This document shows positions 3 to 24,991 of a stretch of 64,000 bases of DNA, one piece after another (position 1 is the stretch's first letter; every line of letters begins with the position of its first letter). The notes beneath the pieces are model-generated. The model saw only the letters and a list, made by a program, of their open reading frames with translations, ran no database searches and was not told the DNA's origin. The stretch comes from Anaeromyxobacteraceae bacterium (lineage in GTDB: Bacteria > Myxococcota > Myxococcia > Myxococcales > Anaeromyxobacteraceae): positions 640,001 to 704,000 of the forward strand of contig JASGHJ010000001.1 in assembly GCA_047602405.1 (NCBI GenBank), in the 5' to 3' direction. The position numbers were made by a program, and so were the translations under genes.

Positions 3-695
3 GACCGGAAGGTCGCGATCAGCGGCAAGGTCTACCAGGTGGTCGGGGTGATGGAGCGGCGCGGCCAGCTCCTCGGCATGAACATGGACGCGAACGCGAT
101 GGTCCCCTACTCCGCGTTCATGCAGGACTTCGGGAACCGCCGCTCGATCAACATCGCGGTGACCGCGAAGCCCGAGGACCTCTCCGGCCTCGAGGACCAG
201 CTCGTCGAGATCCTCCGCCGGGTCCGCCAGGTCCCGCCGGGCAAGAAGGACGACTTCTCGATCAACCGCCAGGAGCAGTTCATCCGCACCTACCAGCAGC
301 TCACCGGGGCCCTCTACTCGGTGGCGGTCGGCGTCGGCCTGATCACGCTCATCGTGGGCGGCATCGGCATCATGAACATCATGCTGGTGTCGGTCACCGA
401 GCGCACCCGCGAGATCGGCGTGCGGCGGGCGCTCGGCGCGCGGCGCTCGACCGTGCTGCTGCAGTTCCTCGTCGAGTCCGCCATCGTGGCGGCCGTCGGC
501 GGCGCGATCGGCACGGCGCTCGGCCTCGGGCTCGCGCAGATCATCGCGCTCGCGACCCCGCTCGCCGCGACCGTGAGCATCTCGGCGGTGTTCCTGGGCA
601 TCGGCTTCTCCGCCGCGGTGGGCCTGCTGTTCGGCAGCTGGCCGGCCTGGCGCGCGGCGCACCTCGATCCGGTGGAAGCGCTGAGGTACGAATGA
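3..695 (+). CDS. ABC transporter permease, MacB/FtsX family (5' partial)
   Basis: Frame is open from the window edge; GGIGIMNIMLVSVTERTREIGVRRALGA and PAWRAAHLDPVEALRYE signatures. Confidence 0.93.
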   Translation, partial: DRKVAISGKVYQVVGVMERRGQLLGMNMDANAMVPYSAFMQDFGNRRSINIAVTAKPEDLSGLEDQLVEILRRVRQVPPGKKDDFSINRQEQFIRTYQQLTGALYSVAVGVGLITLIVGGIGIMNIMLVSVTERTREIGVRRALGARRSTVLLQFLVESAIVAAVGGAIGTALGLGLAQIIALATPLAATVSISAVFLGIGFSAAVGLLFGSWPAWRAAHLDPVEALRYE

Positions 696-1924
696 CCGCC
701 CTCCTCGACACGATCGCGATGGCGCTCGGGACCCTCCGGGCGAACGTGCTGCGCTCCATCCTGACCCTCCTCGGGATCGTGATCGGGGCCGCCACGGTGG
801 TGGCGATGATGTCCTTCACCGAGGGGCTGCGGGTGAAGCTCGGCACCGACTTCGCCCAGCTCGGCGCCGGCGCCTTCCAGGTCCAGAAGTGGCCGGCGAT
901 GAGCTTCGGCCCGCGCGACTGGCGGAAGATCGAGCGCCGCCCCGACCTCACCCGCGAGCAGGGCGAGGCGCTGCGGTCGCTCCCGCACGTGCGGCACGTG
1001 TCGATCGAGGAGTACACGTTCAACCAGCCGCAGAAGCTCACCACGCGCGATCGCGCGACGAAGCAGAACATCGACGTCTGCGGCGGCCTCCCGGACTACG
1101 AGCCGGCGAACGGCGTGACCGTCGGGACCGGCCGGTTCCTCGTCGACACCGACATCCAGCTCGGGCGCCGGGTGGTCTTCATCGGCGCCGACGTGGCCGA
1201 CGCGCTCTTCCCCGGCATGGACCCCATCGGCCAGGAGGTCCGCATGCGCGGCGTCCCGTTCGAGGTCGTCGGGGTCGCGATGCGCAAGGGCTCGATGATG
1301 GGCCAGTCGAAGGACGGCTTCGCCGTCATCCCCTGGCCGGCGTTCGAGCGGGTGTACGGGAAGGCCCGCAACACCAACATCGCCATCGTGGCGTCCTCGC
1401 CCGCCGACGTGAAGGTCGCGCTCGAGGAGGTCGAGGCGAAGCTCCGCAAGCTCCGCGGCCTCGCCCCGCAGGACGAGAACGACTTCGACTACTACACCAA
1501 CGACACCGCGGCGGAGCTGTTCGACAACCTCGCCCGGATGGTCGCCGCGGCGACCGGCGGCATCTGCGCGCTCGCGCTGCTGGTGGGCGGCATCGGCATC
1601 ATGAACATCATGCTGGTGTCGGTCTCCGAGCGGACCCGCGAGATCGGGGTCAGGAAGGCCCTCGGCGCCCGGCGGGCCCGGATCCTGTCGCAGTTCCTGG
1701 TGGAGTCGGTCACCCTCTCGGTGCTCGGCGGCGTCCTGGGCGTCCTGCTCGGGGGTGGGATCGCCCTCGGCGCGAAGGCGATCCTGGACGTGCCGGCGAG
1801 CATCCCCGCCTGGGCGGTGGTACTCTCCCTCGTCCTCACGGGCGGGGCGGGCCTCGTGTTCGGCATCTACCCCGCCGCGCGAGCCTCCCGGCTCGATCCC
1901 GTCGAGGCGATGCGCACCGAATAG
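692..1924 (+). CDS. ABC transporter permease, MacB/FtsX family
   Basis: RSILTLLGIVIG N-terminal TM, periplasmic domain, GGIGIMNIMLVSV motif; ATGA overlap with the upstream gene. Confidence 0.93.
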   Translation: MTALLDTIAMALGTLRANVLRSILTLLGIVIGAATVVAMMSFTEGLRVKLGTDFAQLGAGAFQVQKWPAMSFGPRDWRKIERRPDLTREQGEALRSLPHVRHVSIEEYTFNQPQKLTTRDRATKQNIDVCGGLPDYEPANGVTVGTGRFLVDTDIQLGRRVVFIGADVADALFPGMDPIGQEVRMRGVPFEVVGVAMRKGSMMGQSKDGFAVIPWPAFERVYGKARNTNIAIVASSPADVKVALEEVEAKLRKLRGLAPQDENDFDYYTNDTAAELFDNLARMVAAATGGICALALLVGGIGIMNIMLVSVSERTREIGVRKALGARRARILSQFLVESVTLSVLGGVLGVLLGGGIALGAKAILDVPASIPAWAVVLSLVLTGGAGLVFGIYPAARASRLDPVEAMRTE

Positions 1925-1959
1925 GAGAACGCCGGCGCCCTGCGGCCGGCGCCGGCCTG

Positions 1960-3189
1960 ATGAGCTCGATCCTCGACACCATCGCGATGGCGCTCGGCAC
2001 CCTCCGCGCCAACGTCCTCCGCTCCGTCCTCACCCTCCTCGGCATCGTCATCGGCGCGGCCACCGTGGTCGCCATGATGTCGTTCACCGAGGGGCTCAAG
2101 GTGAAGCTCACCACCGACTTCGCCGAGCTCGGGGCGGGCACGTTCCAGGTGCAGAAGTGGCCGGCGATGGAGTTCGGCCACCGCGACTGGCGCAAGATCG
2201 AGAAGCGGCCGGACCTCACCCGCGAGCAAGGCGAGGCGATCCGCGACCTGCCGTACGTGAAGCACGTCTCGATCGAGGAGTACTCGCGCGCGCCCGAGAA
2301 GCTCACCACGCGCGAGCGCTCCACGAAGCAGAGCGTGGGCGTGGGCGGAGCGCTGCCCGACTACGAGCCGGCGAACGGCGTCCAGGTCGCCGACGGCCGC
2401 TTCCTCGTCGACACCGACATCCAGCTCGGGCGGCGGGTCATCTTCATCGCCGCCGACGTCGCCGACGCGCTCTTCCCGGACGGCGGCGCGGTGGGCGAGG
2501 AGGTGCGCCTGCGCGGCGTGCCCTTCGAGGTGGTCGGCGTGGCGGCGCGCAAGGGGGCGGTGCTCGGCCAGTCCCGCGACAACTGGGCGGTCGTCCCGTG
2601 GCCCTCCTTCGAGCGCGTGTGCGGCAAGAACCGCAACAACAACATCGCCATCCAGGCCACCTCGCCCGAGGACATGCCGAAGGCGATCGACGAGGTCATC
2701 GGGAAGCTCCGCCGGCTGCGCGGGCTCGCGCCGCAGGAGGAGAACGACTTCGACTGGTACTCGAACGACACCGCCGCCGAGCTGTTCAACAACCTCGCGG
2801 CGATGGTGGCCGCGGCGACGGGCGGCATCTGCGGCCTCGCGCTCCTCGTCGGCGGCATCGGGATCATGAACATCATGCTCGTGTCGGTGACCGAGCGGAC
2901 CCGCGAGATCGGCGTCCGCAAGGCGCTCGGTGCGCGGCGCGCCAGCATCCTCCGGCAGTTCCTGGTCGAGTCGGTGACCCTCTCGTTCATGGGTGGCGCC
3001 ATCGGCGTGCTGGTGGGCGCCGGGATCGCCCTCGGCGCGAAGGCCATCCTGGACGTCCCGGCGAGCGTCCCGGCGTGGGCAGTGCTACTCTCCCTCGCCT
3101 TGACCGGGGGGGCCGGCCTCCTCTTCGGCATCTACCCTGCCGCGCGGGCGTCGAAGCTCGACCCCGTCGAGGCGATGCGCACCGAGTAG
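1960..3189 (+). CDS. ABC transporter permease, MacB/FtsX family (close paralog of 692-1924)
   Basis: ATG at 1960 (MSSILDTIAMALG) aligns with the paralog start; same motifs. Confidence 0.92.
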   Translation: MSSILDTIAMALGTLRANVLRSVLTLLGIVIGAATVVAMMSFTEGLKVKLTTDFAELGAGTFQVQKWPAMEFGHRDWRKIEKRPDLTREQGEAIRDLPYVKHVSIEEYSRAPEKLTTRERSTKQSVGVGGALPDYEPANGVQVADGRFLVDTDIQLGRRVIFIAADVADALFPDGGAVGEEVRLRGVPFEVVGVAARKGAVLGQSRDNWAVVPWPSFERVCGKNRNNNIAIQATSPEDMPKAIDEVIGKLRRLRGLAPQEENDFDWYSNDTAAELFNNLAAMVAAATGGICGLALLVGGIGIMNIMLVSVTERTREIGVRKALGARRASILRQFLVESVTLSFMGGAIGVLVGAGIALGAKAILDVPASVPAWAVLLSLALTGGAGLLFGIYPAARASKLDPVEAMRTE

Positions 3190-3214: not shown

Positions 3215-3907
3215 GTGGAACGCGACAAGGTGATGAAGGAGATCCGCGGCTGGACCGTGACGATCCTGGCGGTCCTCGCGTTCCGGACGTTCCTCTACGA
3301 GGCGGTCTACATCCCGTCGGGCTCGATGATCCCGACGCTGCAGATCGGCGACTACGTCATCGTCGAGAAGTGGGCGTACGGCGCCCGGCTCCCGTTCACC
3401 GAGAGTGCGCAGGCGAGCTGGTCGTCCCCGAAGCGGGGCGACATCGTCGTGCTGCTCGCGCCCCCCGGCAACCCGCGCAACGACGACCTCATCAAGCGCG
3501 TCGTCGGCGTGGAGGGCGACACCGTCGAGATCCGCGACGGCTGGCTCGTCGTGAACGGCGAGCCCGTGCCGCGCGAGACCCTCTCCGGCGAGTGCACCTA
3601 CTGGGACAAGAACGAGGGCGGCCCGTGGCGGCAGGAGGACTGCGCCGACCACCTCGAGACCCTGGGCACCCACCGGTTCCACACCTACTGCAAGGCGAAC
3701 GGCCCCTGCGGCGACGACCTCGTGCCGACGAAGGTGCCGCCCGGCCACGTGTGGCTCGCCGGCGACCACCGCGACCGCTCGGCCGACTCGCGCTACTTCG
3801 GCCCGGTCCCGATCGGCCGCATCAAGGGCCGCGCGGTGATGGCGCTCGCGTCGTGGGGCCCGGACGGCCCGCGGTGGAACCGGCTGTTCCACTCGGTGAC
3901 GCACTAA
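3215..3907 (+). CDS. lepB: Signal peptidase I
   Basis: IPSGSMIPTL (catalytic Ser), LIKRVVG (catalytic Lys), GDHRDRSADSRYFG. Confidence 0.93.
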   Translation: MERDKVMKEIRGWTVTILAVLAFRTFLYEAVYIPSGSMIPTLQIGDYVIVEKWAYGARLPFTESAQASWSSPKRGDIVVLLAPPGNPRNDDLIKRVVGVEGDTVEIRDGWLVVNGEPVPRETLSGECTYWDKNEGGPWRQEDCADHLETLGTHRFHTYCKANGPCGDDLVPTKVPPGHVWLAGDHRDRSADSRYFGPVPIGRIKGRAVMALASWGPDGPRWNRLFHSVTH

Positions 3908-5844
3908 GAGCTTTCCCACAATTGCTCAAGCAAGTCGTGGGGCAGACCGGTTCGCCACCGGGCCCGCTCGGACGTGGTCTCCCGTGAGGAAGGCTCATTC
4001 CGGGTTGGGCCCGCGGCCGTGCCGGCGGTTCGCCGAGCCACCGGCGATGAGGCCGGTGTGGACGTCCGCCACGCGGGGCAACTGGCCTCGCGGGCGAAGA
4101 GGTCGTTTGACTCGGACCGGGTGTCTTGCCACCCGAGACACAGGTAGGGTGTGAGGAGGCGCTGGATTTCGGGGCGGGAGCCGTTTGCGGCGGCGTAGTC
4201 GACGCGCGCCGAGTCGGGTTCGCCGGAGAGGTCGAGCACGACGAAGCTCGCGAGCACCGCGGAGACGGCGTCGCGGTCGCCCTCGAGGCGACAGCGCGGG
4301 CAGCGGTGGACCCGGTCGGCGAGGGTCTTCGGCACGCGGGTGCCGCAGGGGCAATGCTGGGAGAGCGCGGTCGTGCGGGTGGGGATCCGGACGACGCCTC
4401 CCTTGGTCTGGGCGAGGCCTGCCACCGCCTTTGCCTCGCGGTCGATGGCCGAGACGAGCAGGCCCGGCGTGAATGCGGCCACGCCGCGGCCCCAGCGGCG
4501 CGCCCACGCGGAGATGTGGCCTTCCTCGGCGAAGATCCGGTAGCCGTGGGTTTGGACGACCTGGGCAGCCACGCGCCTGGCGCGGTCGCGGCGGGCCTGC
4601 ACCCCGGCAGCCGCGCTGGCGACCTCTTCGGCCCGAAGCCGCCGGTGACGGCGCGAGAGCTGGTCGCGCCGGTAGGCCTGGAGCGGCACGCCGTCTGACC
4701 TTGCGATCCTCGGCCCCTGGGGAATGACGTTCACGGGCGAGAGGCCAGCGGCGGCGCGTCGACGGGCGCGCTTCTCTTGCCGCTTCGACAGCCGGTACTG
4801 TTCCTGGTTGGCAGCGCGGCGGGACCGGTCCAGCGCCCGCTGCCTGCGGCGCTCGCGGCGGCGCCGGCCACGGTCGCGCTCCTTCGTGGCAAGGTCGCGC
4901 TCGATCCGCGTGAGGCGCAGGTCGCCTCCCGCCACCTGCGAGGCGATCGTCAGGTTCGATACGTTGACGTCCATCCCCGCGAGGCGGTCAGCCGCTGCGA
5001 CGGCGACCTCCGCCCGGCGCACCCTCGTGGCCGGCGAGACATAGGGCTCCTTCAGCACCATCAGGTGGGCTTCGTAACGCCAACCTCCCCGCGCGTGGGG
5101 CGCCCGGGTGCGGACGAGGTCGACCTTGTGCCAGAGGCTCGGGTCGGCGAGGTGGTAGTCGAGGATGGGTTGGTTGCACGGTGCCGTGGGCAGTCGCACC
5201 GGGAGGACCAGCGAGCCGTCGGCGAGCCCGCTGAACACGAGCATCAAAGGACCTTGGTAAGCCCACCAGTCGACGCGGCCGCCCGGGGCCGAGGGGGCTC
5301 CGAGGCGATGGCCCGCGAGCGACCCGTGCAGCCGGAAGGTCTCCCACTTCCGTGCCGTCGTGTGAGAGCGCGCGCGGCCGGGCAGCCTCCCGAAGTCGAA
5401 CCACCGTCCGACGTGGAGCAGTCCCTGCCGCTTTCCGGTCGCGTCGGGGAACAGGTGCCGCTCCGCCGGCGACCAGACCGAGTCGGCGAGGTGCATCGCG
5501 ATCGCCTTCGTGACGAAGCGCCGGAGGTGAGGTGCCGAGTCCAGAACGGCGTACGCGGTGTGCTCGAGCGCCCCCCGGCTGAGGCCGAGCCGGTCGCGCG
5601 TGCCCGCGACGTCCTGGGCCCGTTCGTGCTTCGCCGCCCAGCAGGCCCGCGTACGGTTCCGGGCCGCCCGCTGCAGCGCCCTCCGCACCCGGTACGCGTC
5701 CGCGAACATCCGCTCGAGCCGCCGACGCTGCTGGGGATCGTGGACGTCGAGCGCGAGCCGCAGGACCGACACGCCGTCCTCGGGCCGGCGTGCCCAGGGC
5801 TCCTGCTTGTTCGGACCGCGGGTCCGCCTGGGTTCGACTTCCAC
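3904..5844 (-). CDS. Large TnpB-like RuvC endonuclease (putatively RNA-guided)
   Basis: RuvC-I LAGMDVNVS, Arg-rich helix, RuvC-II RIFAEEG, Zn ribbon SQHCPCG...HRCPRC, RuvC-III DRDAVSA, in TnpB order; start codon uncertain. Confidence 0.8.
   Translation of the reverse strand: MEVEPRRTRGPNKQEPWARRPEDGVSVLRLALDVHDPQQRRRLERMFADAYRVRRALQRAARNRTRACWAAKHERAQDVAGTRDRLGLSRGALEHTAYAVLDSAPHLRRFVTKAIAMHLADSVWSPAERHLFPDATGKRQGLLHVGRWFDFGRLPGRARSHTTARKWETFRLHGSLAGHRLGAPSAPGGRVDWWAYQGPLMLVFSGLADGSLVLPVRLPTAPCNQPILDYHLADPSLWHKVDLVRTRAPHARGGWRYEAHLMVLKEPYVSPATRVRRAEVAVAAADRLAGMDVNVSNLTIASQVAGGDLRLTRIERDLATKERDRGRRRRERRRQRALDRSRRAANQEQYRLSKRQEKRARRRAAAGLSPVNVIPQGPRIARSDGVPLQAYRRDQLSRRHRRLRAEEVASAAAGVQARRDRARRVAAQVVQTHGYRIFAEEGHISAWARRWGRGVAAFTPGLLVSAIDREAKAVAGLAQTKGGVVRIPTRTTALSQHCPCGTRVPKTLADRVHRCPRCRLEGDRDAVSAVLASFVVLDLSGEPDSARVDYAAANGSRPEIQRLLTPYLCLGWQDTRSESNDLFAREASCPAWRTSTPASSPVARRTAGTAAGPTRNEPSSRETTSERARWRTGLPHDLLEQLWESS
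3907..4145 (-). ncRNA. Candidate omegaRNA/reRNA scaffold overlapping the 3' end of the TnpB-like gene
   Basis: Lies between RuvC-III and the element end; hairpins at 3915-3941, 4023-4035, 4039-4058 and 4118-4135; inferred by analogy with TnpB systems, boundaries unknown. Confidence 0.4.
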
Positions 5845-6694
5845 CTTTTCACTTTAAGCCGAAGCCCTGACAGGCGTTCAGGGCCTCCGAGCAGGCGCCC
5901 TGGACGAAGTGAGCGACGTTCGCGGTTCCAGGGACGTGTCCGTGTCCCTCATACCGACCCACCGACTGCTCACCCTCGCGTCCATGACAGGGCGCGACCT
6001 CGCTCGCCTCCGGCGCGTGCTCCCCGCGTCCAGGTGCCGGGGGCGTCCCTGCTCGAGCTCGCCGCTGCACCGTCTCCTCGTCGCCTGCATCGCGCTGCGC
6101 ACCAACCTCACCCTGCGCGAGCTCGCCGCCGTCGTCGGCCTCTCGAAGTCGACCGTCCATCGCATCGTCGCAGCCTTCACGCCGAGGCTCGCTGGCCTCG
6201 CTCGCCCTCCCGTCCGAAGAGATCGCCGCGAGACCTGGATCGTCGATGGGACCCTCATCCCCACTCGTGATCACGGCCGCGCTGCGAAATCCAAGAACTA
6301 CCGCTGGTCCTGCAACGCCCAGGTGCTCGTGCGCTGGCGAGACCGTCGCGTCGTGGCCACGTCTGCCGGCGGGCCGGGCAACCGAAACGACCCGTTTCAT
6401 TTTCGCGGCTCCGAAATCGAATCGCTTTGCCTCGACCACCGCCGTGTGCTCGCCGACGGAGGATACCGAGGCGTCACCGGCCTTCGCATCCCTGTCTTCA
6501 GGAGCACCAGGATCGTTCGGGATCGCGCCTGGCGCCGCCATCGTCGCCGCCGGGCTCGCGTCGAACACGTCCTCGCTCGCCTCAAAGACTGGCGCGTCCT
6601 GCGCGACCACCGCCGACGCGGCCGCCACCTCGCGGCCACCGTGGCAGCCGTCGCCGTCCTTCACAATCTCAAGCGAAACTTGTGGGACAGCTCT
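3907..6694. mobile_element. IS5-family-like element carrying a divergent TnpB-like nuclease gene
   Basis: Terminal inverted repeats AGAGCTTTCCCACAA (3907-3921) and AGAGCTGTCCCACAA (reverse complement of 6680-6694), 14/15 identical; TA duplicated at 3905-3906 and 6695-6696; encloses exactly two ORFs. Confidence 0.88.
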
Positions 6695-6697
6695 TAG
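5909..6697 (+). CDS. IS5-family DDE transposase (HTH + DDE_Tnp_4 type, ISL2/IS112-like)
   Basis: RTNLTLRELAAVVGLSKSTVHR HTH; VDGTLIP (D), SKNYRWS, GNRND, ADGGYRG (D), RARVEHVLARLKDW (E). Confidence 0.88.
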   Translation: MSDVRGSRDVSVSLIPTHRLLTLASMTGRDLARLRRVLPASRCRGRPCSSSPLHRLLVACIALRTNLTLRELAAVVGLSKSTVHRIVAAFTPRLAGLARPPVRRDRRETWIVDGTLIPTRDHGRAAKSKNYRWSCNAQVLVRWRDRRVVATSAGGPGNRNDPFHFRGSEIESLCLDHRRVLADGGYRGVTGLRIPVFRSTRIVRDRAWRRHRRRRARVEHVLARLKDWRVLRDHRRRGRHLAATVAAVAVLHNLKRNLWDSS

Positions 6698-7428
6698 CCG
6701 GCGGTCTCAGCCTCCCCGCCGCGCGCGAGCAGCCGCTCGAGGCTCCCGAGCACGAGCCCCAGTCCGACCTCGAACTCGTGCTCGTAGGACGAGGCGCGGC
6801 CGTTGCTCCCGGGCGGCGTCCGTCCCCTCACGAACGCCCACATCTCCCGGATGTTCGGGAGCGCGCCAGCCGGAAAGTCCGGCTGCGGGCCGCCGGCGGC
6901 CTCGCGCGCCGAGGCGATCCAGCTGACCTCCTGCAGCACGAAGCCGTAGATGAAGCTGTCGAGGAGGATGAGGGCGTCGTACGTCGCCTCGATCGAGAAC
7001 CCGGCCCCGCGCAGGATGCCGATCAGCGCCTCGAAGATGGGCAGCCGGGCGGAGCCGAAGTCCACCCGCGCCTCGATGAGCCCGGGCGCCCAGGGGTGCA
7101 GGAGGAGCACGCGGCGGGCGGCGCGGGCGCGGGTGCGCAGCGCCTCCTGCCAGGCGGAGCCCGCGTCCGGCACGCCGAACTCCCCCCCGACGAGGTCGAC
7201 GATGCCGTTGAGGAGGTCGTCCTTCCCGGCGACGTGGTTGTAGAGGGACATCGCCTCCACGCCGAGGGCGTCGCCGAGCCGGCGCATCGAGAGCGCGCCG
7301 AGCCCCTCCGCGTCGGCGAGCGCGATCGCCGCGCGCAGCACCCGCGCGCGGTCGAGGGGCGCGCGGGCCGGAGCGCGCCGTGGCGTGCGGCGGGCACCGC
7401 TCCGCGGTCCGGTCTGCCGCATCCCCAT
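6694..7428 (-). CDS. TetR-family transcriptional regulator with TetR_C-type domain
   Basis: ADAEGLGALSMRRLGDALGVEAMSLYNHVAGKDDLL HTH; AGGAGG RBS upstream. Confidence 0.9.
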   Translation of the reverse strand: MGMRQTGPRSGARRTPRRAPARAPLDRARVLRAAIALADAEGLGALSMRRLGDALGVEAMSLYNHVAGKDDLLNGIVDLVGGEFGVPDAGSAWQEALRTRARAARRVLLLHPWAPGLIEARVDFGSARLPIFEALIGILRGAGFSIEATYDALILLDSFIYGFVLQEVSWIASAREAAGGPQPDFPAGALPNIREMWAFVRGRTPPGSNGRASSYEHEFEVGLGLVLGSLERLLARGGEAETAG

Positions 7429-7444
7429 CCGGCCTCCTGTCACA

Positions 7445-7522: not shown

Positions 7523-8164
7523 ATGACCGCGCTCGTAGCCCTCTTGCTCGCCGGACAGGTCTCGCAGGTCTCGCAGGTCTCGCAGGTCTCGCAGGTCTCG
7601 CAGGTCGAGGTCGCGTCCGCCGCGCCAACCGCCCCGCATCGCTTCTTCGTCTCGAGCCCCTACCTCTCCTTCACGAACTGGATCGGCGAGGACGTCGGCA
7701 TGTACGAGCTCCACGCCGGCTATCGGCTCACCGACCGCGACCGCGTCGGCGTGAAGGCCGTCACCTGGAAGCTCAACAAGCCCCTCGGCATCCCGGCCTG
7801 GGATCCGGCCCTGTTCGAGAAGAGCGAGTACTACCCGGGCCGCGTCCGGGAGTACGGCGTCGGCGCGTTCTACCAGCGCATGCTCTGGAGGGGCCTCTTC
7901 GCCACGGCCGAGCTCGTGCCGCTCCGGAAGGTGTTCCTGGACCGGCACGGGAAGGAGCTCGAGACGGGCTTCCGCCTCTACGCCTCCCTCCACGTCGGCT
8001 ACCACCTGTCGTTCTTCCGCGACCGGCTGTTCATCGAGCCGCAGGTGCACTGCAACGGGTGGCCCGTCGACTCGAAGGGCCCGGAGGGCTTCCGGCGCAT
8101 GGACGCCCGATGGAACAGCTACTTCCTGTTCGAGCCGAACCTGTACCTCGGCGTGAACCTGTGA
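7523..8164 (+). CDS. Hypothetical exported protein, possibly an outer-membrane beta-barrel
   Basis: GAGGAGG RBS, signal-like N-terminus, aromatic-rich beta-strand pattern ending YLGVNL. Confidence 0.7.
   Translation: MTALVALLLAGQVSQVSQVSQVSQVSQVEVASAAPTAPHRFFVSSPYLSFTNWIGEDVGMYELHAGYRLTDRDRVGVKAVTWKLNKPLGIPAWDPALFEKSEYYPGRVREYGVGAFYQRMLWRGLFATAELVPLRKVFLDRHGKELETGFRLYASLHVGYHLSFFRDRLFIEPQVHCNGWPVDSKGPEGFRRMDARWNSYFLFEPNLYLGVNL
7556..7606 (+). repeat. 9-bp tandem repeat (CAGGTCTCG)x5.7 encoding (QVS)n
   Basis: Five perfect copies plus CAGGTC. Confidence 0.95.
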
Positions 8165-21274: not shown

Positions 21275-22958
21275 CAGACCTGATTCCCGCTGAGGGGTCG
21301 CGGCGCGGGTACGGCGCCGGCGGCGCTTGAGGTTCCGACCTACTTCGCGAAGGGCACGGCTTTCGTGGCGCGGGTGAGTTCTTCCCCCGGTGGCCGCGGT
21401 TTCCTGATCGGCAAGATCGACGGGCGGATCGGGCCCGGCGATCATCGCCTCCGCGCAATGAGAAGGGGTGGAGCCAAGGCCGGCCCCACCCCCAAGACGG
21501 CCGAACTCGCGCAAACGAGAAGAGGCCGGGAGGCAGGAGATCATGCCGATCACCGAAGCACAAGCCCGGCGTGCGTTGCGGCACGCCGACATCCCCTGGG
21601 ACCGGGAGGTGGACGACCCGCGCGAGGATCCGTGGGTCGTTCACGACCACTACGGTCTGCTCGGCGGCCTCGCCGCCGCGTTCGCCGTGGGCCGGTACCG
21701 GCTGCGGCACGCCGAGAACTTCCTCGCCGATCTTGGCGTGGGCGCGCGTCGCGCGCTCGGCCTCGGCCGGCGGACGCCGAGCGACACGACGCTCTACAGG
21801 CTGCTGGCCGGGCAGGACGCGGCGGGTTTCGAGGAGACCGTCTTCGCCCAGGTGAAGGACCTCGTCGCGCGGAAGGTCGTGAAGCACGACCGGTTCCGCG
21901 TCGGAGTCGTGAGCTTCGACGGCAAGGGCACCTGGTCGCGGACCGACGGCGAGCCGGTCGAAGGCGCAAAGCGGGCGGTCGACGATTTCCACGGGGTGAC
22001 GATCCAGAGCTTCGGCGCGATGCGCGCGGCGCTCACCTCGTCGTCCGTGTGCCCGTGCGTCGGGCAGAAGGTCATCGGCTCCAAGGAGGGCGAGGTCCCC
22101 GCCTTCCGCGAGCTCTTCCCACGCGTGTGCGAGGCGCTGGGAGAGCGCTTCAAGATCATCACCGGCGATGCGGGTCTGTGCGCGCGAGAGAGCGCCGAGC
22201 TCGTGGCCGAGCGCGGTCGCTGGTACCTCTTCACGCTGAAGGGAAACCAGCCTCACCTGCACGGCCTCGCGAGCGACTTCCGCTGCTACGAGATGGGCGT
22301 GCCGCTGGCGCGGACGACGGACCGGTACCGCGGTCACAGCGTCGTGCGGGAACTCTACGCCGTCGACGTCGCGGGCAGCCGCATGGTCGACATCGCCGAC
22401 GCTCAACAGCTCTGGTACGTCTGCCAGACTACCTACGCACCGAACGGCGGGTGCGTCGCCGTCGAGCAGCGGTACTTCGTCACCTCGATCCCCTCGCGCA
22501 CCTTCTCGCGCGGCGAGGAACTCGCCCTCGTGCGCCTGCACTGGGCCATCGAGAACGGCTGTCACTGGGCGATGGACGTCGCGCTTCGCGAGGACGAGGC
22601 GCAGCCCTGCCAGGTGAGCCGAGCGGCCATCGAGGCCGTCAGCTGGCTGCGCATCATCGGCTACAACGCCGTCAGCGCCTGGCGACAGCTCGCACCGCAG
22701 AAGGACCGAAAGCCCATCAGCTGGGAGCGCGCGAAGGAGACCCTCCGCGACGCGCTGGTGCTCGCCGGACGCGATCACCTCGAGCCGCTCTCAGCCGACA
22801 CCTGAACCCACGGCCGGCCGCCGTCCCCCCTCCTCCTTGCGCGCGACAACCGAGAACGTCCCCGGCCCTCGGCCGCTGCCGACCTTCGTCTTCACGTCGC
22901 GGCAGGACCCTTGAACCGGCAGACGTACCTGAACCCCACCGAACGCGGATCAGGTCTG
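21275..22958 (+). mobile_element. ISAs1-family insertion sequence, 1684 bp
   Basis: TIR CAGACCTGAT at both ends; 10-bp direct repeat AAATGTCAGA at 21265-21274 and 22959-22968. Confidence 0.92.
21543..22805 (+). CDS. ISAs1-family transposase
   Basis: DDPR, PSDTTLYRLL, SFDGK, TGDAG, LKGNQPHL, RYFVTS, HWAIENGCHWAMDV. Confidence 0.92.
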   Translation: MPITEAQARRALRHADIPWDREVDDPREDPWVVHDHYGLLGGLAAAFAVGRYRLRHAENFLADLGVGARRALGLGRRTPSDTTLYRLLAGQDAAGFEETVFAQVKDLVARKVVKHDRFRVGVVSFDGKGTWSRTDGEPVEGAKRAVDDFHGVTIQSFGAMRAALTSSSVCPCVGQKVIGSKEGEVPAFRELFPRVCEALGERFKIITGDAGLCARESAELVAERGRWYLFTLKGNQPHLHGLASDFRCYEMGVPLARTTDRYRGHSVVRELYAVDVAGSRMVDIADAQQLWYVCQTTYAPNGGCVAVEQRYFVTSIPSRTFSRGEELALVRLHWAIENGCHWAMDVALREDEAQPCQVSRAAIEAVSWLRIIGYNAVSAWRQLAPQKDRKPISWERAKETLRDALVLAGRDHLEPLSADT

Positions 22959-22993: not shown

Positions 22994-24991
22994 ATGAACG
23001 CGGGACACCCCACTGCCGCAGGGCCTTCCGGGTCGTCACCCGCGGTGGCGTCGCCCGCCGCGGCGCCGCCCACCGGGTCCCCGCGCCCCGCGCGCCGCCC
23101 GCGGGGCGACGACGCCTTCCTCGCCCGCCTCGAGGCGCGCGCGGCCGCGGCGAAGGGCGAGCCGTCGAAGCTCGTCCTCTCGCGTGCGGACGGGAAGCGG
23201 CTCGTCGCGCTCGCGGTGAAGCTGGCCCGCGGGCACGGCCCGGAGGACCTCCGCGTCGGAGAGGGGCTGTGGACGCTCCGGCCTCACGATTTCAAGCTCG
23301 GCTACAACGGCATCGGCGACCTCGCCCTCGACCGGCTGGGGATCGATCCCGCCCACGCGCGGTGGCTCGCCGGCCTCGCCGAGAAGCTCGCCACCCGGCC
23401 GCTCATCCGCGCCGCGGTCGCCTCGGGCGAGCTCTCGATGCGCAAGGCCGAGGCCATCGTGGACGCGGCCGTCGACGAGAAGCTCGAGGCCTACTGGCTC
23501 GGCCGCGCGAGGCTCGAGCCGGTCCGGGAGCTCGAGCGGCTCACGAAGCCGGGGACGAACCCGTACGACGAGGGCTGGCGGGATGTCGTGGCCCGGCTCG
23601 AGGACCCCGTCCACCGGGAGCACGTCGAGTACGCCTTCGAGGTCGCCTCGGTGATCCTCGGCGACCCCGACGCGCCGAAGTGGAAGGTCATCCGGGCGCT
23701 CTGCATGGAGTTCCTCGGGGGTCATCCGGTGCCGGTCGCTCCGGGTGCGGACGCCGGCGAGGGACCGTCAGTTGTGGCGCGTCCGCCCGAGGGACCGTCA
23801 GGTGTGGCGCGTGGGCCGGAGGAGGCGGGGGCTCCGGTGCCCGAGGCCACGGGAACGACGGGAGCGCCCGAAGCCGGACCGTCAGGTGTGGCGCGCAGTC
23901 CGGCGGTTGAACCGTCAGGTATGGCGCGTGCCGCTGCGGCGCGCCTGCCCCCGCCGCCCTGCCCATCGCCCCAGCAGCTCCTCCGCGAGCTCGCGCGGCT
24001 CCAGAAGGCCCGCCTCCCCGACGAGGAGCGGTTCGGCCGGGCCATCCTGCTCGTGCGCGTCTTCCGGGCCTACCGACTCGCAGGCGCCCGGACGTTCGAG
24101 GTCTTCTGCGTCGAACAGCTCGGCGTCGCCCCGTCGACGGCCCGCCAGCGCATGACCCTCGAGCGGAACCTCCGCGCGCTCCCCGAGCTCCGCGAAGCGC
24201 TACGCACCGGCGCCCTCTCCTACGAGCAGGCCCGCGCCGTCGCGAAGGTCGCCACCCCCGCGGACGTCGCGCCGCGCATCGTCGCGGCCGCGAAGAAGCC
24301 CGCCATCGAGACCCGCCGTGAGGTGCAGCAGGAGCTGGACCAGCAGATGTGGCGCGAGGGGACGGTCAAGGCTTCGGTCCCGCGCGACGTGGACGAGCTC
24401 TTCGCCGAGGCCCTCCTCTCCGCCCGGCTGCGCTCCGGGCCGGGGCTCTCCCCCGGGCAGGCGCTCTTCCTCATGAGCTTCCACTTCACCGATGTCTGGG
24501 AGCCGCTCGCGCTCGACCTCGTCCTGAAGGCCGATGAGATCAAGCTCCGTGACGGCGGCCGCTGCCAGGTCCCCGGCTGCTCCCACCCCGCGGAGCACGT
24601 GCATCACGTCCGCTTCCGGTCACAGGGCGGCCGTACCACGGGCACCAACCTCGTGAGCGTGTGCTCGGCCCACCACCTCATCGGCATTCACAAGGGGTTC
24701 ATCCGCGTGTCCGGCACCGCCCCCGGCGGCCTCGTCTGGGAGTTCCTCGGCCGCGACTCCGAGGAGATCGCGCTCCTCTTCCCGGAGGACCCCGCCGAGC
24801 GTGACGAGGGTTCCCAGGCTGGGGCTTCGGTGATGGAGCCCGCCGCTTCGCCCGCCGCTCCGGCCAGAGCCACGGCTCCCTGGCGCAGCGAGGACGGTGA
24901 ACCTTTGGGCTTTCCTACCCGATGCCCTTCGCCTTGCGGATCAGGTCGCAGAGCTCGCGCACCGCGCCGCGGCCACCCTTCGCGGTCGTGA
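22994..24991 (+). CDS. HNH endonuclease-domain protein (DUF222/13E12-like)
   Basis: RDGGRCQVPGC...HVHHVRFRSQGG...NLVSVCSAHH...H; two similar helical modules upstream; 3' end overlaps kdsC. Confidence 0.82.
   Translation: MNAGHPTAAGPSGSSPAVASPAAAPPTGSPRPARRPRGDDAFLARLEARAAAAKGEPSKLVLSRADGKRLVALAVKLARGHGPEDLRVGEGLWTLRPHDFKLGYNGIGDLALDRLGIDPAHARWLAGLAEKLATRPLIRAAVASGELSMRKAEAIVDAAVDEKLEAYWLGRARLEPVRELERLTKPGTNPYDEGWRDVVARLEDPVHREHVEYAFEVASVILGDPDAPKWKVIRALCMEFLGGHPVPVAPGADAGEGPSVVARPPEGPSGVARGPEEAGAPVPEATGTTGAPEAGPSGVARSPAVEPSGMARAAAARLPPPPCPSPQQLLRELARLQKARLPDEERFGRAILLVRVFRAYRLAGARTFEVFCVEQLGVAPSTARQRMTLERNLRALPELREALRTGALSYEQARAVAKVATPADVAPRIVAAAKKPAIETRREVQQELDQQMWREGTVKASVPRDVDELFAEALLSARLRSGPGLSPGQALFLMSFHFTDVWEPLALDLVLKADEIKLRDGGRCQVPGCSHPAEHVHHVRFRSQGGRTTGTNLVSVCSAHHLIGIHKGFIRVSGTAPGGLVWEFLGRDSEEIALLFPEDPAERDEGSQAGASVMEPAASPAAPARATAPWRSEDGEPLGFPTRCPSPCGSGRRARAPRRGHPSRS
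23764..23928 (+). repeat. Four copies of the 18-bp motif ACCGTCAG(G/T)T(G/A)TGGCGCG inside the HNH gene
   Basis: Copies start at 23764, 23794, 23878 and 23911; spacings of 30, 84 and 33 bp. Confidence 0.85.

Follow-up and report, generated by a model that had tools for sequence, protein, structure and literature searches.

What is an unusually large TnpB-like protein of 646 amino acids (aa) doing in a genome of the family Anaeromyxobacteraceae with no CRISPR array beside it? The gene lies in a stretch of 64,000 nucleotides (nt), hereafter the window (GenBank assembly GCA_047602405.1, contig JASGHJ010000001.1, positions 640,001 to 704,000). The initial annotation, which presented the protein as a compact candidate nuclease of a divergent clade, correctly reported the absence of an array: a crude scan for 16-mer spacing detects none in the window (in the rest of the genome, 10 spots have short repeats), and no cas1 gene was found in the 98%-complete genome. 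This absence is explained by features that the annotation missed, namely, an IS5-family transposase, terminal inverted repeats, a CTAG target and an RNA scaffold. The locus is probably an IS5-family transposon inserted at CTAG that carries a likely RNA-guided TnpB, whose cleavage of the CTAG left behind after excision would allow repair to bring the element back.

The insertion sequence and its CTAG target

The tnpB gene occupies one arm of an element with the following parts (window coordinates):

3907 to 6694, no strand: IS5-family (DDE) insertion sequence of 2788 base pairs (bp) with tnpB and a divergent transposase gene, with an inverted repeat at both ends and six copies in the genome
3907 to 3921, plus strand: terminal inverted repeat, tnpB end, 15 bp, with a mismatch to the other end at 3913
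6680 to 6694, plus strand: terminal inverted repeat, transposase end, 15 bp, identified from the sequence
3905 to 3906, plus strand: probable TA target-site duplication on the tnpB side, with CTAG completed by the C at 3904 (based on single-CTAG empty sites)
6695 to 6696, plus strand: probable TA target-site duplication, transposase side, followed by G at 6697 (same basis)
3904 to 5844, minus strand: tnpB open reading frame (ORF), 646 aa, with the TAG of the target site as its stop codon
5909 to 6697, plus strand: IS5-family DDE transposase (262 aa if counted from the first GTG), with D113, D183 and E219, whose stop is the TAG of the target

An 18-nt inverted repeat with one mismatch (3904-3921 and 6680-6697) encloses the two genes, which lie head-to-head, each ORF stopping at the final TAG of its own arm. 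Members of the IS5 family have short terminal inverted repeats and duplicate 2-4 bp at a preferred target, and the window element, with its 15-bp repeats and TA duplicated within CTAG, fits this pattern; its transposase is a DDE enzyme and its ends are inverted repeats with a TA duplication, unlike IS200/IS605 or IS607 elements, which have a Y1 or serine TnpA and neither terminal inverted repeats nor a duplication. The transposase matches PF13359 (DDE_Tnp_4; 36.7 bits, above 24.8) and PF01609 (DDE_Tnp_1; 41.7, above 23), and falls below the threshold for PF13613 (N-terminal helix-turn-helix; 22, below 27), a domain present in most of the listed members among its 1580 homologues; as regards the IS5 subgroup (ISL2, IS1031 or IS427), the best NCBIfam match is NF033581 (IS5 family transposase; 47.6 bits, below the cut-off of 140). 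Because its relatives are ∼249 aa long, the true start is probably near residue 10-14. The 64-bp gap separating the two divergent genes contains a short inverted repeat (5868-5886). A TAAAGT hexamer is located 6 nt ahead of the tnpB GTG, with TAGGAT-like hexamers similarly placed in relatives, and may mark a leaderless promoter; a sigma-70 promoter scan found no full promoter.

The mobility of the element can be gleaned from its copies. The genome contains six long copies and one fragment, which share their ends and have unrelated flanks, and the window copy is the only one in which both genes are intact. Three of the six long copies have lost the transposase and have an intact tnpB; two tnpB-only copies of 2204 bp differ at only 2 bases, and thus moved recently with no transposase of their own. 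One other copy has an intact transposase, a frameshifted tnpB and an insertion of 1680 bp. At locus L088 (G000:C2:2703862-2703976), short inverted segments and a deletion have rearranged the transposase gene, and tnpB is intact.

The genes that flank the window copy, lepB and tetR, adjoin without the element in another genome (G010) and in one contig of sequencing run X1, and run X3 has loose ends at precisely 3904 and 6697. The search for empty sites covered ten insertions, the six of this genome against G010 and four others (L022-L025) against this genome, and an orthologous empty site was identified for 8 of these. Five of the eight sites (L093, L094, L096 and the orthologues of L023 and L025) have a single CTAG, two of them (L094 and L096) being clean on both sides. 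The left junctions of the occupied sites are mostly CTAA and the right junctions mostly TTAG. Given the single CTAG at the empty sites and these junctions, the simplest reading is a duplication of TA within CTAG, so that the element spans 3907-6694 and has 15-bp repeats, with the proviso that a zero-base duplication with shifted ends would have the same appearance. A duplication of three or four bases was rejected since the left and right junctions differ at that length and the empty sites have one CTAG. The bases outside CTA and TAG show no preference. The tetranucleotide itself is scarce in the genome (1073 sites compared with ∼4700 expected).

The two host genes are as follows:

3215 to 3907, plus strand: host signal peptidase I gene lepB (PF10502, E 1.8e-42), whose stop TAA is formed by the element end
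6694 to 7443, minus strand: host TetR-family regulator gene (PF00440, PF02909), whose stop TAA is formed by the other element end

The element is placed where these convergent genes end and gives each of them its TAA stop; because overlapping TAG stops would have been present in an empty site with CTAG, the insertion alters neither host protein.

The association of the two genes extends across the family. The 150 loci tallied include the 6 copies of this genome, 64 loci from genome contigs and the best 80 of 165 metagenome hits; loci L012-L021 were left out, partly against double counting. A divergent IS5 match is present in 85 of the 123 loci that include the TnpB N-terminus and 400 nt or more of upstream DNA, and these are split unevenly, with 83 of 95 outside the Micromonosporaceae/Streptosporangiales group compared with 2 of 28 inside it. 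Most loci in this group are tnpB-only elements of ∼2.1 kb with CTA...TTAG ends; outside it, the 12 loci without a transposase match comprise 3 tnpB-only elements whose end is close by and 9 ambiguous cases. Many ∼2.1-kb tnpB-only elements per genome were observed in Dactylosporangium and its kin (L050-L084), with degenerate left ends (CTAG, CTAC, CTAT) and AAGG/CCUU pseudoknots (see below). The pairwise distances of tnpB and the transposase are correlated (Spearman 0.755; 37 loci; 0 of 999 permutations), which shows a shared history, not co-adaptation. Five plasmid records match, and two of these (Euzebya and Mycobacterium) contain the same divergent pair, with TnpB annotated merely as ‘transposase'. 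A search of sequencing runs listed no RNA run; the best DNA runs shared 5-7% of words, and the four that were examined yielded contigs of relatives only.

The TnpB protein and its extra length

The 646-aa ORF is a genuine, TnpB-like gene and not a chance reading frame, as judged by 772 homologues (E ≤ 1e-3, 7985 candidates scored), a codon-type GC pattern across the core, and a median core ratio of non-synonymous to synonymous substitution rates (dN/dS) of 0.29. Its coordinates and motifs are as originally described, with GMDVN at residue 290, FAEE at 438, CPC at 498, CPRC at 515 and DRD at 523. The best 120 homologues are 62-96% identical and mostly 630-680 aa long, the nearest named relatives coming from Anaeromyxobacter, which makes a host of this kind probable, and an index-free search with residues 1-553 retrieved 779 representatives (50% identity, E ≤ 1e-3), many of them fragments. 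Within the order of the host, 4 of the 151 genomes searched carry a relative; none was found in the viral contigs searched.

The putative catalytic residues D292, E440 and D525 and the four cysteines are invariant in 111 aligned proteins. Across the 150 DNA loci, the three acidic residues are retained in 146 of 147, 140 of 140 and 132 of 132 cases, respectively, and the four cysteines of the C4 zinc finger are near-invariant in about 140 loci. The proposal of a large, divergent TnpB clade is thereby supported, the D-E-D triad and the C4 finger being intact. The motif taken as RuvC-II, FAEE, is indeed conserved, with the refinement that the conserved acid is the first E (E440), whereas 90% or more of the relatives have D at position 441. 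After DRD, a sequence of the AVS/VSA type is found where NAA is expected.

The protein scores below the cut-offs of PF07282 (25.1 bits compared with 26.3), NF040570 (27.5 compared with 100), IS607_TnpB (26.6 compared with 350) and IS200_TnpB (13 compared with 425), that is, by sequence it is a divergent clade lying outside the curated TnpB family models. Because of these sub-threshold scores and the plain ‘transposase' labels in public records, the clade is easy to overlook. PADLOC yields weak matches to Cas12f and Cas12u2 in the C-terminal region only; a PDB search with the single sequence returned nothing but coiled-coil noise, and in a profile search, the D, E and DRD motifs register with those of solved TnpB-family chains.

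The structural model covers one feature:

4138 to 5844, minus strand: folded TnpB core, residues 1-569 (AlphaFold), with WED/REC, RuvC (D292/E440/D525), C4 zinc finger (498-518) and a conserved insertion (∼345-397)

Residues 1-569 are modeled with a mean predicted local distance difference test score (pLDDT) of 90.2 and a predicted template modeling score of 0.82. The tail of about 120 aa noted initially does consist of 121 residues, but only residues 526-569 fold; residues 570-646 are disordered (pLDDT <50) and, as discussed below, RNA-like. The model has the WED-REC-RuvC-TNB fold that defines TnpB. Among TnpB, Cas12f, Cas12m and Fanzor structures, VIA-align ranks ISDra2 TnpB first (8exa; Z 16.2, root mean square deviation 3.6 over 333 residues, model range 23-539), followed by ISFba1 TnpB (Z 15.9), Fanzor2 (13.7), AsCas12f (13.6) and Cas12m (12.0), whereas the top rank in Foldseek is Cas12m2 (E 1.2e-10), tied with AsCas12f.

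ISDra2 TnpB, as described in PMC10097598, consists of 408 aa, with REC at 13-116, the triad D191/E278/D361 and a disordered, dispensable tail at 376-408. The excess of 238 residues in the window protein is distributed as 101 before RuvC-I, 61 between RuvC-I and RuvC-II, 2 more up to RuvC-III and 74 thereafter. The expanded recognition lobe that had been proposed accounts for only part of this: as estimated from the secondary structure of the model, the first 101 residues divide into ∼21 at the N-terminus, ∼64 in REC and ∼17 in WED and the linker, and the last 74 are mostly read-through across the predicted guide-RNA gene. The middle insertion (∼345-397) contains or adjoins the invariant residues R343, N346, Y350, Q356, R362, G377, R379 and D394. 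Set against the compact nuclease of the initial description, the system, with ∼570 folded residues in the model and a predicted 233-nt scaffold, exceeds ordinary TnpB in size. The protein is likely to be an RNA-guided DNA nuclease, and the suggestion of a candidate programmable nuclease is plausible.

The tail of tnpB as a predicted RNA scaffold

Three RNA features are predicted at the tnpB end of the element:

3904 to 4136, minus strand: predicted 233-nt omegaRNA scaffold, which extends over codons 570-646 and the terminal repeat (based on covariation, controls and dN/dS)
4124 to 4127, minus strand: loop AAGA, the 5' strand of a predicted pseudoknot with UCUU at 3906-3909
3884 to 3903, minus strand: predicted guide of the window copy, in the flank past the element end and antisense to the 3' end of lepB; conservation stops after TTAG

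Codons 570-646 appear to behave as RNA rather than protein. In pairwise comparisons of 34 distinct sequences, the differences fall on the three codon positions at 0.26/0.23/0.51 in the RuvC core and at 0.30/0.31/0.29 in codons 570-640. Net frameshifts are present in 0 of 33 sequences in the core and in 9 of 33 in codons 601-646. Measured against the window copy, in pairs that are not independent, the core has a median dN/dS of 0.29 (75 loci) and the tail one of 0.95 (74 loci), with dS halved in the tail. A protein domain at residues 570-646 was rejected given the disordered model, the RNA-like codon-position pattern and the dN/dS of 0.95.

RNAalifold predicts 48 pairs for 29 sequences, 27 of them with a compensatory change; in a 61-pair version, 85.8% of the cells are paired, compared with 33-42% in slid and 74.7% in shuffled controls, and folding of a single scaffold sequence gives a z of -2.75. 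A model built from the 29 sequences points to the corresponding position in all 31 of the distant actinomycete loci outside its training set and also matches three plasmid loci, one of them weakly. No stand-alone omegaRNAs were found among the six genome matches of this model, all of which are at tnpB copies. Most of the inner pairs of an added 3'-terminal hairpin have poor support (58% paired in alignment A3), and these pairs were omitted from model R1. Rfam returned one sub-threshold snoRNA match, taken as chance.

The loop of the first hairpin, AAGA, and the element end, UCUU, likely form a pseudoknot. Among 100 distinct loci scored (8 further loci lack a loop call), 66 have AAGA/UCUU, 24 have AAGG/CCUU, 3 have a G-U pair, one pair is broken in 3, and the remaining 4 are apparent mis-calls, so that all four pairs are retained in 93; in alignment A3, the pairs are present in all 29 sequences. 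In ISDra2, the standard pseudoknot pairs are described as ending at -3, two bases ahead of the guide (PMC10097598). If the same spacing applies here, the guide would start directly after TTAG and the transposon-associated motif (TAM) is predicted, by this analogy, to be CTAG. Of 111 distinct tnpB ends, 109 read TTAG and none CTAG; of the two exceptions, one is a mis-call (TTAG on inspection) and the other is TCAG. By comparison, the transposase end (n = 60) reads CTAA in 40 cases, CTAG in 16 and otherwise in 4. CTAG does occur at the tnpB end of the fragment copy, which was not part of this tally and has lost most of the scaffold. An occupied site reads TTAG at the tnpB end, where a T would be expected both from self-protection and from pairing in the pseudoknot.

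A homing model, its alternatives and its relatives

The anatomy of the element, its mobility, its target, the triad and the RNA-like conservation of the tail can be seen in the sequence, and to these the proposed mechanism adds transcription of the flank, the TAM, cleavage and repair, which we infer. Transcription through the element end into the flank would produce a scaffold that ends in the pseudoknot, followed by AG and then by a guide copied from the flank. The transposase would excise the element by staggered cuts in the TA duplications, as in PIF/Harbinger, and rejoining could regenerate CTAG. TnpB would then meet the TAM CTAG beside a perfect match to its guide and cut, and recombination with an element-bearing copy would restore the insertion; the occupied site, reading TTAG, would be spared. 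By analogy, precise excision would be the step that makes TnpB useful to the element: PIF/Harbinger transposons are reported to excise precisely via staggered cuts in their duplications (PMC4561436), and a published tree places them with the IS5 family (PMC12730594).

A number of observations weigh against this mechanism. Cleavage, the guide RNA and excision are deduced from sequence, and precise excision in particular is borrowed from a eukaryotic relative assayed in yeast (PMC4561436). Cut-and-paste excision already leaves a break, as pointed out in a 2026 review, so that a guided nuclease may add little (PMC13565253). Three of the eight empty sites lack CTAG, one having CTAC and two, including the orthologue of the window copy's own site in G010, being diverged. 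The compensation in the pseudoknot amounts to about two events, with 66 of 500 shuffles reaching one double-changed pair, and the double-changed pair is broken in 2 of the 100 loci. The asymmetry of the ends does not prove that the TAM is CTAG because the pseudoknot alone also explains the invariant T, and the left ends with CTAG stem from few lineages. The substitution at 3913 may weaken that terminal repeat of the window copy. Finally, the tail frame remains open to the final TAG in 76 of 104 full-length loci, which is why some selection on the translation of the tail is possible.

Under an alternative that we consider unlikely, an active, guided TnpB-RNA unit spreads by means of the IS5 ends and transposase mainly in its own favor, through tnpB-only copies and by cutting alleles that arrive without the element, and gains nothing at the excision site. 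The frequent loss of the transposase next to an intact tnpB, in 3 of the 6 long genome copies and in 26 of the 28 Micromonosporaceae/Streptosporangiales loci, is in line with this possibility, as is the doubt expressed in the review about any benefit after cut-and-paste excision (PMC13565253). However, 83 of the 95 other loci retain the transposase in a fixed divergent layout, with correlated gene distances, and the cutting of alleles without the element does not differ in mechanism from the activity in the homing model.

It is also conceivable, albeit quite improbable, that the protein is an RNA-guided DNA binder with poor or no cutting activity, a Cas12m-like repressor or roadblock with an Arg-rich insertion for tight binding. 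The first rank of Cas12m2 in Foldseek, tied with AsCas12f, the Cas12m-like size and Arg content, and the replacement of NAA after DRD all point in this direction, but the near-invariance of the three acidic residues and four cysteines in about 140 loci does not, nor does VIA-align, which favors ISDra2 TnpB (Z 16.2) over Cas12m (12.0), and a guide that differs at every insertion site is unsuited to a fixed regulatory target. Still less credible is steering of insertion by the TnpB-RNA complex together with the neighboring transposase, as RNA-guided transposition or homing. The stability of the two-gene unit across loci and the conserved surface insertion in TnpB could be accommodated by such a scheme, but the nuclease site is intact, unlike that of Cas12k, the flanks past CTAG are unrelated among the copies and show no base preference, and a further CTAG-adjacent near-match to its six predicted guides was not found in the genome, except for one site with 3 mismatches.

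An orphan type V CRISPR effector fed by CRISPR RNAs from elsewhere, suggested by a size near that of Cas12m and the weak, C-terminal-only PADLOC matches to Cas12f and Cas12u2, is hardly tenable and was rejected, given that the crude scan detects no array in the window, that cas1 was not found in the 98%-complete genome, that the gene bears its own scaffold fused to the transposon end and moves as an insertion sequence, and that CRISPR-like flags were raised at only 4 of the 150 tnpB loci, all of them tandem or repetitive extragenic palindrome (REP)-like repeats. One locus (L066:680-1020) contains four REP-like palindromic repeat copies with ∼87-nt spacing, 3 kb from the tnpB element.

The window contains several other features. 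A 1680-bp element at 21279-22958, which we take to be ISAs1-like, encodes a transposase (21468-22805) with DDE_Tnp_1 and DDE_Tnp_1_assoc domains, and a 99.6% identical copy resides inside a tnpB element at G000:C2:798302-799981. Directly after it lies a 665-aa ORF (22994-24991) with an HNH domain at its C-terminus, scoring at the cut-off, and a weak match to a ParB-type helix-turn-helix. Several copies of a perfect 9-nt tandem repeat (7547-7606) lie in frame at the N-terminus of an unannotated 225-aa ORF, and three tandem paralogous ABC-permease genes, presumably MacB/FtsX-like, are located upstream of lepB (39-3189).

Combinations of this kind have been noticed before. Six DDE-associated TnpB branches, DDE-1 to DDE-6, with inverted repeats and solo copies mobilized in trans, are described by Altae-Tran et al. 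(2023, PMC10691335), and the DDE partners of TnpB are named as ISL2, IS630 and IS1031 in the 2026 review (PMC13565253). As far as these accounts go, the window element shares with DDE-1 to DDE-6 the adjacent DDE transposase, inverted terminal repeats, a TnpB 3' end <250 bp from the element end and solo tnpB copies with the same ends. On the same accounts, the window TnpB is not DDE-6 (IS630), and DDE-5 is unlikely because that branch has a rearranged site and TA 8 bp from the end (PMC10691335), whereas the window TnpB has a canonical triad and TA abuts the end; the clade may be one of DDE-1 to DDE-4. The main account of PMC10691335 gives no RNA structure, TAM or activity for these branches. 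A literature search on TnpB with IS5, DDE, ISL2, IS1031, CTAG or terminal inverted repeats, which covered few subscription papers, found no experimental study of such an element. Thus, the kind is already known from sequence surveys, apparently without experiment, and the window copy is an intact member.

Compared with the better-characterized systems, as these are presented in the cited sources, ISDra2 TnpB (PMC10097598; PDB 8exa, 8h1j) shares the fold, the D-E-D triad, the C4 finger, an omegaRNA over a disordered C-terminal tail and, by the present prediction, a pseudoknot that ends two bases before the guide. The differences are in size (646 compared with 408 aa), scaffold (∼233 nt compared with a 116-nt core) and TAM (CTAG, predicted, compared with TTGAT), as well as in the DDE transposase, inverted repeats, TA duplication and divergent genes in place of a Y1 TnpA. 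The Fanzors of eukaryotic DDE transposons (Harbinger, Mariner and others; PMC13565253) similarly are enlarged TnpB-family proteins in elements with terminal inverted repeats, in which the 5' duplication is part of the TAM and the 3' duplication belongs to the RNA scaffold, as is predicted here. The window protein differs from these in its bacterial host and in the canonical placement of the RuvC-II glutamate, and the likeness described here is one of features; the predicted 3' pseudoknot is a further difference from Fanzor1, which is said to be without one (PMC13565253). Cas12m and Cas12f have in common with the window protein the fold (Z 12-13.6) and, in the case of Cas12m, the size, but here there is no array or cas1, the guide is predicted to come from the transposon flank and the triad is intact.

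Whether and how an RNA-guided nuclease aids cut-and-paste DDE transposons is a question left open in the 2026 review (PMC13565253). The window locus offers a complete pair of genes in a recently mobile element whose ends are mapped and whose target is defined, along with a predicted scaffold, guide and TAM, and so makes this question experimentally accessible. As a tool, the nuclease would add a CTAG TAM, yet it is bulkier than ordinary TnpB. A broader and only tentative view is that a Harbinger-like IS5 transposase and an enlarged, catalytically intact TnpB have moved across phyla as one unit and form a bacterial lineage that is widespread; CTAG would serve as the insertion site, the stop of both genes, the last bases of the scaffold and the TAM, scarless excision would allow restorative homing, and the conserved insertions might extend the checking of the guide-target duplex, as in the enlargements of Cas12 and Fanzor1. 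If this is the case, the lineage would be a bacterial counterpart of the Fanzor-bearing DDE transposons, endowed with an uncharacterized nuclease with a CTAG TAM.

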